From Escherichia phage Huey, in sequence record PQ850609.1: a stretch of DNA of 38,575 nt. One strand, written 5' to 3'. The position numbers and the translations under genes are program-made. Numbering within the stretch: the first letter of the stretch is position 1; the number at the start of each line of letters is the position of its first letter. Shown one piece after another: positions 16,338 through 16,967 of this stretch. The notes under the pieces were generated by a model that was not told where the DNA came from, ran no database searches, and was given only the letters and a program-made list of their open reading frames with translations.

Positions 16338-16670
16338 TGATGCAGCCATGGATGGCTACATGAATGGGTGGTGCTTGTTTACGAAGTAAACCAGAAGCAC
16401 AAACGCGACGATGTTAATTGCAACTACAATTTTGCTATTCATCAGTGACCCCTATAGGTAGGTAAAGTTAGAGTCTCATTGATTTCCATGTACATTCAAG
16501 TCTCCATGGTCTTGCGTGTCTATCATTCAGTCTTACACTCGTACTTCTACCACTCAAAAAATTCCCTATACGCATTCGCCTGCTTAGCAAAAGCATACTC
16601 CATTCTTGTTGAACTCCGCCACCAACAAATAATTACTGTATGTGCATACAGCGATTATCTGAGGTGCATC

Positions 16671-16967
16671 ATGGGATTCCCCAGTCCTGCACAAGACTGC
16701 ATAAAGGAGCACATATCGATCGACAAGCGCATCATATCGAGGCCAGCAGCTACCTACTTCATGAAAACGGGGGCAACACACTACCGGGAAGGCATCCTAA
16801 GTGGCGCTCTCTTTGTCGTTGATGCATCTTTGAACCCATGTGATGGATCATTGCTGGTTTGTGCAACTGATGGTGAGTTCAGAATTAAGCGTTACCTGAC
16901 ATACCCGCAACCGCATCTGGAAAATCTGGATAACGGAAAGAGGGAGAGGATTCCTGACAAGAATTAG
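16671..16967 (+). CDS. UmuD'-like protein (S24 peptidase fold, catalytic Ser not conserved, C-terminally short)
   Basis: ATG 16671 with GAGG SD; GFPSPAQD...ATYFMK...DGEFRIKRYL parallels UmuD residues 25-100; GDSM motif replaced by GATH. Confidence 0.55.
   Translation: MGFPSPAQDCIKEHISIDKRIISRPAATYFMKTGATHYREGILSGALFVVDASLNPCDGSLLVCATDGEFRIKRYLTYPQPHLENLDNGKRERIPDKN

Follow-up and report, generated by a model that had tools for sequence, protein, structure and literature searches.

A humD gene probably inactivated by two in-frame amber codons beside the attP site of Escherichia phage Huey

A UmuD-like open reading frame next to the attP site of Escherichia phage Huey is very probably a copy of humD put out of action by nonsense codons. 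By its sequence, the locus belongs to the stand-alone HumD family, which includes P1 HumD, N15 gp26 and HK639 'UmuD'. The family and its mechanism are already known, and what this phage holds is a nonsense-inactivated copy. The whole stretch of DNA analysed (record PQ850609.1, 38,575 nucleotides) is referred to here as the window. The maximal ORF at the locus occupies 16479..16967 on the + strand and encodes 162 aa from a TTG start. Inside it, an ATG at 16671, with GAGG (16661-16664) 6 nt before it, opens a 98-codon product beginning MGFPSPAQD. This truncated humD ORF, with a TAG at codon 99, spans 16671..16967 (+ strand) and is matched by the NF051876, PF00717 and phrog_811 profiles.

The humD locus has the tailspike gene on one side and attP and int on the other. 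The lambda-type attP core, GCTTTTTTATACTAA, was located by sequence and by matches to the attP features of lambda, HK97 and 434; it lies at 17360..17374, ~300 bp downstream of the humD locus. The integrase gene (17448-18518, - strand) carries Pfam integrase domains, including the lambda arm-binding domain. Directly after humD is a terminator-like hairpin, GGTGGC-GCTAT-GCCACC followed by TTTT (17054..17083, + strand), and N15 has an annotated terminator at the equivalent place, after gene 26; Rfam returned no match within 16300-17450. When ten large ORFs of the window were scanned against Pfam, eight matched (P22-type terminase, portal, coat, stabilisation, injection and tailspike proteins, a lambda-type integrase and a DnaB helicase) and two did not. 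The window appears to be a complete P22-like (Lederbergvirus-type) genome carrying a lambda int/attP module, and its closest relatives are Sf101, CUS-3 and APC_JM3.2.

Family membership was assessed with NCBIfam NF051876 ('HumD family translesion DNA polymerase'), a curated equivalog with a cutoff of 120 bits and P1 HumD as its type member. The 98-aa ORF scored 145.4 bits over profile positions 1-97 of 129, and the read-through translation scored 190.5 bits over positions 1-127 of 129. Position 1 of the profile aligned with residue 1 of the product from ATG 16671, placing its start at the equivalent of UmuD Gly25 (M-GFPSP). A preliminary description of the locus had proposed that the GAGG-preceded ATG opens a product, M-GFPSPAQD, that starts at the UmuD cleavage site, and both the sequence and the HumD profile confirm this. 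The Peptidase_S24 match on which that description depended was also significant, with PF00717 scoring 28.9 bits on the 98-aa ORF (cutoff 23.3, E=1e-6), and phrog_811, 'UmuD-like', matched the humD ORF at E=1.4e-36. In contrast, the UmuD model NF007621 gave scores of 68.6 bits (for the 98-aa ORF) and 71.3 bits, below its cutoff of 110.

A search of 5.8 billion proteins yielded 307 homologues with modal lengths of 128-129 aa; the source names, where given, were mostly HumD family or S24 peptidase. The nearest intact protein was 80% identical to the window humD product. In tblastn searches of phage genomes, identities were 57-59% for the HumD proteins of P1, P7 and D6, ~65% for N15 gp26 and HK639 'UmuD', and 74% for HK140. 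The window copy has the model score, the M-GFPSP start, the predicted upstream LexA box and the stand-alone arrangement of a HumD gene, but not the uninterrupted protein of ~128-129 aa with the conserved block FGVITYIINDAR..EFDD.

HumD, first described in phage P1, is known as a stand-alone, LexA-regulated UmuD' analogue with neither an N-terminal arm nor umuC. Substitution of P1 HumD for UmuD' is reported in PMC7092418 with reference to McLenigan et al. (1999, J Bacteriol 181:7005), a study that PMC4713147 also cites, and the P1 GenBank record states of humD that it 'functionally complements E. coli UmuD''. Like the window copy, P1 HumD (and that of P7, D6 and SJ46) has the M-GFPSP start, a LexA box ~17-19 nt upstream of the ATG and no umuC. 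The P1 and window sequences are 59% identical over all 129 codon positions, and both score above the NF051876 cutoff. They differ in that P1 HumD is intact at 129 aa and retains Asp-Ser at the position of the UmuD GDSM motif (AADSHH), whereas the window copy has Ala-Thr there, two ambers and a G109V change. In addition, P1 humD resides in a plasmid prophage, whereas the window gene lies in a P22-like lambdoid genome beside attP.

Closer to the window copy, at 65-80% identity, are the intact HumD genes HK140 gp028, HK639 'UmuD', N15 gp26, phiKO2 gp23 and those of the homologues P0003, P0004 and P0010. As in the window, each follows the tail fibre or tailspike genes as the final gene, ahead of the att site or of the end of the late region. 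They have a LexA box (except HK140) and a GATH or GSTH motif without the Ser nucleophile, as the window copy does, but they are uninterrupted at 128-129 aa, whereas the window copy stops at codons 99 and 122. The pre-processed start, the absence of umuC and the GATH motif are HumD family traits, since the start at the cleavage site and the lack of umuC are universal in the family and loss of the Ser is its consensus. The proposal that the gene encodes a stand-alone UmuD' mimic is correct for the HumD family, where it is already published biology; the window copy is probably disabled by two ambers.

The humD product aligned to the UmuD' structures 1UMU, 1I4V and 8GMT at E ~1e-15 (E=3.4e-15 for 1UMU). 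In the alignment to 1UMU, GATH lies opposite GDSM, such that Thr replaces the Ser60 nucleophile, and the Lys of EFRIKR is kept, as the preliminary description had read from the sequence. The HumD family consensus at the GDSM position is RAGATHYREG, with Thr or Ala in place of Ser. When the product was compared with UmuD/MucA/RumA-type proteins, the Peptidase_S24 domain was found, but the Ser-Lys dyad (Ser60, Lys97), a cleavable N-terminal arm, a score above the model cutoff and a umuC operon were not. Relative to E. coli UmuD/UmuD' (1UMU, 1I4V, 1AY9, 8GMT), the window copy has a homologous fold region, the GFPSPA motif and the Lys97 equivalent. It differs from them in having no N-terminal arm, no Cys-Gly site, Thr instead of Ser60 and no umuC operon, in its HumD-specific C-terminal tail NDARSGEFDDCPVM, and in its NF007621 score below the cutoff. 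The 10 large ORFs scanned in the window included no match to a UmuC-typical Pfam family, in agreement with the earlier observation that no umuC partner is present.

These comparisons bear on whether the locus derives from a umuDC/mucAB/rumAB operon, of plasmid or chromosome type, through deletion of umuC and the N-terminal arm. The S24 fold is common to both families, the product is 40-45% similar to UmuD', and the open upstream frame contains 'SDYLRC', all of which would fit such an origin. Against it, the HumD equivalog scores of 145-190 bits stand beside only 69-71 bits on NF007621. Furthermore, the intact relatives (P1, N15, HK639, HK140 and Enterobacter/E. coli prophages) start with MGFPSP, are umuC-free and, with the exception of HK140, have a LexA box directly upstream, and the frame upstream of the start is closed by stops in all of the intact homologues examined (n=6). 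We consider an operon remnant of this type extremely unlikely. Of the earlier suggestion of a decaying umuDC/mucAB remnant, the decay is upheld by the two ambers, but the umuDC/mucAB origin is not.

The in-frame extension upstream of the ATG (16479..16670, + strand) is non-coding and carries the promoter region and LexA box along with the Shine-Dalgarno sequence. Manual reading identified a weak candidate sigma-70 promoter, TTGTTG-16 nt-AATAAT, at 16606..16633 (+ strand), with 8/12 positions matching; a promoter scan with a threshold of 9/12 reported no site upstream of humD. The predicted LexA (SOS) box, TACTGTATGTGCATACAGCG, lies at 16634..16653 and is the sole CTGT-N8-ACAG in the 38.6-kb window. 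HK639, N15, P1 and the P0003 contig have TACTGTAT...ACAG at the position aligned with this box, and in P1 a LexA-binding site is annotated 19 nt upstream of humD. These features suggest that the window copy would be under LexA control. The Shine-Dalgarno sequence, GAGGTG, is at 16661..16666 (+ strand), and GGAGGTG or GAGGTG is conserved at this position in close homologues.

The preliminary description had also noted a weaker similarity to the UmuD N-terminal arm upstream of the ATG (SDYLRC against SDLVQC). However, the in-frame stretch TVCAYSDYLRCIM is what the LexA box (ACTGTATGTGCATACAG) and the Shine-Dalgarno sequence GAGGTG give when translated. In 6/6 intact homologues examined, a stop lies in this frame 2-20 codons ahead of the ATG, and a degenerate UmuD arm in the extension was rejected on this ground. 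The 64-aa upstream extension had no PHROG family match, and the resemblance, at 3/6 residues, is due to chance. A 159-aa database protein, P0001, named 'DNA repair protein', looks like a gene-calling artefact of the open upstream frame.

The gene is interrupted at its 3' end. The first premature amber is codon 99 (TAG, 16965..16967, + strand), which is GAG or GAT in relatives according to the DNA alignment and tblastn with P0003. The second is codon 122 (TAG, 17034-17036, + strand), which is GAG or GAA in relatives. Between them, codon 109 is GTG (16995-16997, + strand), giving a G109V change at a residue that is Gly in every intact sequence. The lesions at codons 99, 122 and 109 are all G-to-T. 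The post-stop remainder of humD, codons 100-129 (16968..17057, + strand), still encodes ASETSRPVFVVITYIINDARAG*FDDCPGV, and translation and DNA alignment place the family-typical stop at codon 130 (17058..17060, + strand). Read through, the window frame gives ...IPDKN*ASETSRPVFVVITYIINDARAG*FDDCPGV*, and intact relatives have ...LPDKNEASDTSRPVFGVITYIINDARSGEFDDCPVM. DNA alignment against HK140, HK639, N15 and P1 revealed all 129 codons in register, with 0 indels. Translation ends after 98 residues, without the C-terminal block VFGVITYIINDAR..EFDD, because Glu codons 99 and 122 became TAG. Sequencing error was considered as the origin of the stops and rejected, as identical TAGs occur in independently sequenced phages and in ~100 contigs.

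The preliminary description had the product ending about 15 residues early relative to UmuD'. The early end is real, but it is produced by an in-frame TAG and is not a naturally shorter C-terminus; 31 residues are lost relative to the HumD family and about 21 relative to UmuD'. The lost segment holds five invariant columns (F108, G109, V110, T112 and Y113) and 13 nearly invariant ones, and in the alignment the lost residues correspond to UmuD ~119-139. By homology to UmuD' and LexA, the lost block would form the final strand of the beta-core and contribute to the dimer contact. An AlphaFold2 prediction of the intact homologue P0003, made from a 25-sequence alignment, had a pLDDT of 44 and a pTM of 0.38, values too low for the model to be used. 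The comparison with homologues points to a pseudogene, a state that the preliminary description had itself raised, as in the intact relatives codons 99 and 122 are sense codons.

The same double-amber allele with G109V is present in phage APC_JM3.2 at 98.9% nucleotide identity, where the ACAG of the LexA box has become GCAG; its GenBank entry is ATN92737.1, a 98-aa protein annotated as 'DNA polymerase V subunit'. APC_JM3.2 differs from the window in its 3' end (DDYPLK) and in its integrase module. Phage Dewey shares with the window both ambers, G109V and the junction to the lambda attP arm, and has in addition a third stop, Q80* (TAA). Through a ~490-bp deletion (window ~16375-16863), Dewey lacks ~64 codons together with the start codon and the LexA box. 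Dewey therefore carries the window allele in a further decayed form. On match pattern alone, CurroJimenez (CurroJimenez_Bas106) and Louie have a two-piece match like that of Dewey. The truncated allele is not a one-off, because the 98-aa form is the only form of the window sub-lineage, in 17 protein variants and ~100 contigs. A megablast search of 5,426 complete E. coli genomes did not find the window allele; the best full-length matches there were 73-77% identical.

Other broken copies were found at the equivalent location with different lesions. The BTP1 copy combines a frameshift with a stop at codon 29, the Sf101 copy has a 5' deletion and a stop, and the copy in an E. coli S163-2 prophage, between the tailspike gene and dacD, is flagged 'frameshifted' by PGAP. 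These three copies represent independent decay within P22-like phages and prophages. In mEp234 and several Stx phages, tblastn matches were confined to C-terminal parts of the protein.

As both premature stops are TAG, and as the downstream codons are in register and well conserved, full-length HumD could conceivably be made by read-through of both ambers, for example in hosts with an amber-suppressor tRNA, giving conditional expression. Strong amber suppressors are rare in natural E. coli. The window has no tRNA gene of its own, as none was found in a search for them; the yield after suppressing two ambers in succession would be very low, and the product would carry G109V at an invariant Gly. 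The extra TAA stop and the deletion in Dewey indicate that there is no selection to keep the frame. Read-through as the explanation of the locus is most improbable, and inactivation by the nonsense mutations remains our preferred reading.

To this reading the counts of conserved positions and branch-specific changes add a measure of constraint. The window copy deviates at 6 of 44 columns that are at least 98% conserved, compared with a mean of 0.32 and a maximum of 4 among 103 intact members. In the retained part, the substitutions of the window lineage at such positions are E12K, R14H, L17I and L48F, and rare variants of the sub-lineage have G2V, R39L or R74S at conserved positions. Branch-specific changes, counted at sites where three intact homologues agree, were 20 nonsynonymous to 14 synonymous on the window lineage compared with 19:42 on the pooled intact lineages (Fisher p=0.010). 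By these counts the window lineage is under relaxed constraint. Pairwise omega against intact genes was ~0.1 in both halves of the gene and dS was saturated (0.9 to >2), which places most of the divergence before the inactivation and leaves little power to detect decay.

The same data were considered in relation to whether the 98-residue fragment is itself functional, for example as a decoy, induced by SOS, that would bind UmuC, UmuD, RecA* or the beta clamp but form no active Pol V, thereby damping or re-timing host mutagenesis. The window retains an intact LexA box and Shine-Dalgarno sequence, the ATG and the first 98 codons; each of the 17 variants in the sub-lineage (~100 contigs) is exactly 98 codons long, and an independent E. 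coli allele, P0056, is likewise cut near codon 95. In addition, branch changes before the stop were 13 nonsynonymous to 13 synonymous (omega ~0.3), compared with 7:1 after it, as would be expected if some selection still acted on the 98-aa product. This last contrast is, however, not significant (p=0.10), and PGAP classes the P0056-type allele as a frameshift pseudogene. Of the seven post-stop nonsynonymous changes, two are the ambers. In Dewey the promoter, the start codon and 64 codons are gone and a third stop has arisen, the LexA box of APC_JM3.2 is damaged, and conserved positions of the retained part have changed, as listed above, all of which argues against a maintained fragment. The post-stop region also speaks against it, being still well conserved, so that the stops are recent and DNA which no longer has a use has not yet been lost. 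We regard a functional fragment as unlikely.

In its most specific form, a fragment unable to dimerise would be kept as an SOS-induced decoy that sequesters UmuC, RecA* or the beta clamp, suppressing host Pol V mutagenesis during prophage induction, and the recurrent truncations near codons 95-99 in independent P22-like prophages would reflect selection and not decay. Such a fragment would keep the N-terminal tail of UmuD' and most of the beta-core. We consider this version very unlikely.

Collectively, these results point to nonsense inactivation of a gene whose function in its intact relatives can be outlined as follows. HumD is the product of a phage or prophage accessory ('moron') gene, an analogue of UmuD' made already 'activated', lacking from the outset the N-terminal arm that UmuD loses in RecA-stimulated self-cleavage. 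In the intact relatives, the LexA box holds the gene off until the SOS response. HumD then replaces UmuD' and pairs with host UmuC to form a Pol V-type translesion polymerase, as shown for P1 and presumed for the rest. All 129 codons are still present in the window, as are the LexA box and the ATG with its Shine-Dalgarno sequence, and the two G-to-T ambers together with G109V would disable the product, from which we infer loss of function of this copy and expect it not to stand in for UmuD' in SOS mutagenesis. Most likely, judging from the sequence, the locus is a non-functional pseudogene that may still be SOS-transcribable and that represents an intermediate stage of decay.

The finding has little significance beyond annotation. 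The appropriate label for the locus is humD pseudogene, with its two internal ambers noted; it is misleading to call it 'DNA polymerase V subunit' or 'DNA repair protein' or to annotate a 159-aa ORF. As a modest evolutionary observation, P22-like phages and prophages display a graded decay of humD at the attP-proximal end, from intact genes through the double amber to further stops and deletions. These graded states suggest that the SOS-mutagenesis moron is often dispensable in P22-like phages.

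The window (1-38575) looks like the complete mosaic genome of a temperate phage. Its P22-type genes encode terminase, portal, coat, stabilisation, injection and tailspike proteins, and its lambda-type part comprises the integrase, xis and an attP core exactly as in lambda. Across the first 25 kb, coverage by any single phage record reached 59% at most, and the P22-like phage Sf101 was the best match at 96% identity. An ORF of 875 aa (11587-14214) occupies the injection-protein position. Its N-terminal segment is a putative lytic transglycosylase, and Sf101 carries the annotation 'transglycosylase' in the matching region. 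The tailspike gene (14343-16337) combines a P22 head-binding domain with a pectate-lyase-like beta-helix. It is equal in length to the tailspike gene of phage Dewey, which is annotated with 'colonic acid degradation activity'.

Between the tailspike gene and the promoter of humD, the UmuD'-like gene, lies a spacer of 295 bp (16340-16634). This spacer is present in phage APC_JM3.2, and only its first stretch is common to the window and Dewey, CurroJimenez and Louie. Comparison of Dewey (1500-1560 of its locus) with the window (16368-16864) revealed a deletion of ~490 bp in Dewey, such that ...GGGTGGTGC now abuts AACTGATGG.... Because both window endpoints of this deletion end in TGTGC or GGTGC, the sequence suggests that it was microhomology-mediated.

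Within humD of the window lineage, the disabling or invariant-site changes at 16965, 16996 and 17034 are all G-to-T transversions, two converting GAG to TAG and one converting GGG to GTG. These three changes may reflect a mutational signature or may be a coincidence. The humD copy of APC_JM3.2 is near-identical to that of the window, except that one arm of its LexA box (~4295-4314 of the APC_JM3.2 locus; CTGTATGTGCATGCAG) is mutated from ACAG to GCAG. Judged from the sequence, this mutated box would be consistent with regulatory decay once the gene had been inactivated.

A mosaic junction was also observed exactly at the 3' end of humD (~17044-17072). The identity of APC_JM3.2 to the window stops at ~17044, its last humD codons being HK140-like (DDYPLK), and the identity of the attP arm to lambda, 434 and ev099 begins at ~17059-17072. 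The junction between humD and the attP arm is common to the window and Dewey.

The neighbourhood of the intact humD of phage HK140 (910-1890 of its locus) contains a small ORF and a dinI-like gene. This humD lacks a dedicated LexA box. The small ORF lies directly 5' of humD, its stop codon overlapping the humD start codon, and is adjoined by the dinI-like gene in divergent orientation. Together, humD, the small ORF and the dinI-like gene of HK140 form a small SOS-related accessory cluster adjoining attP.
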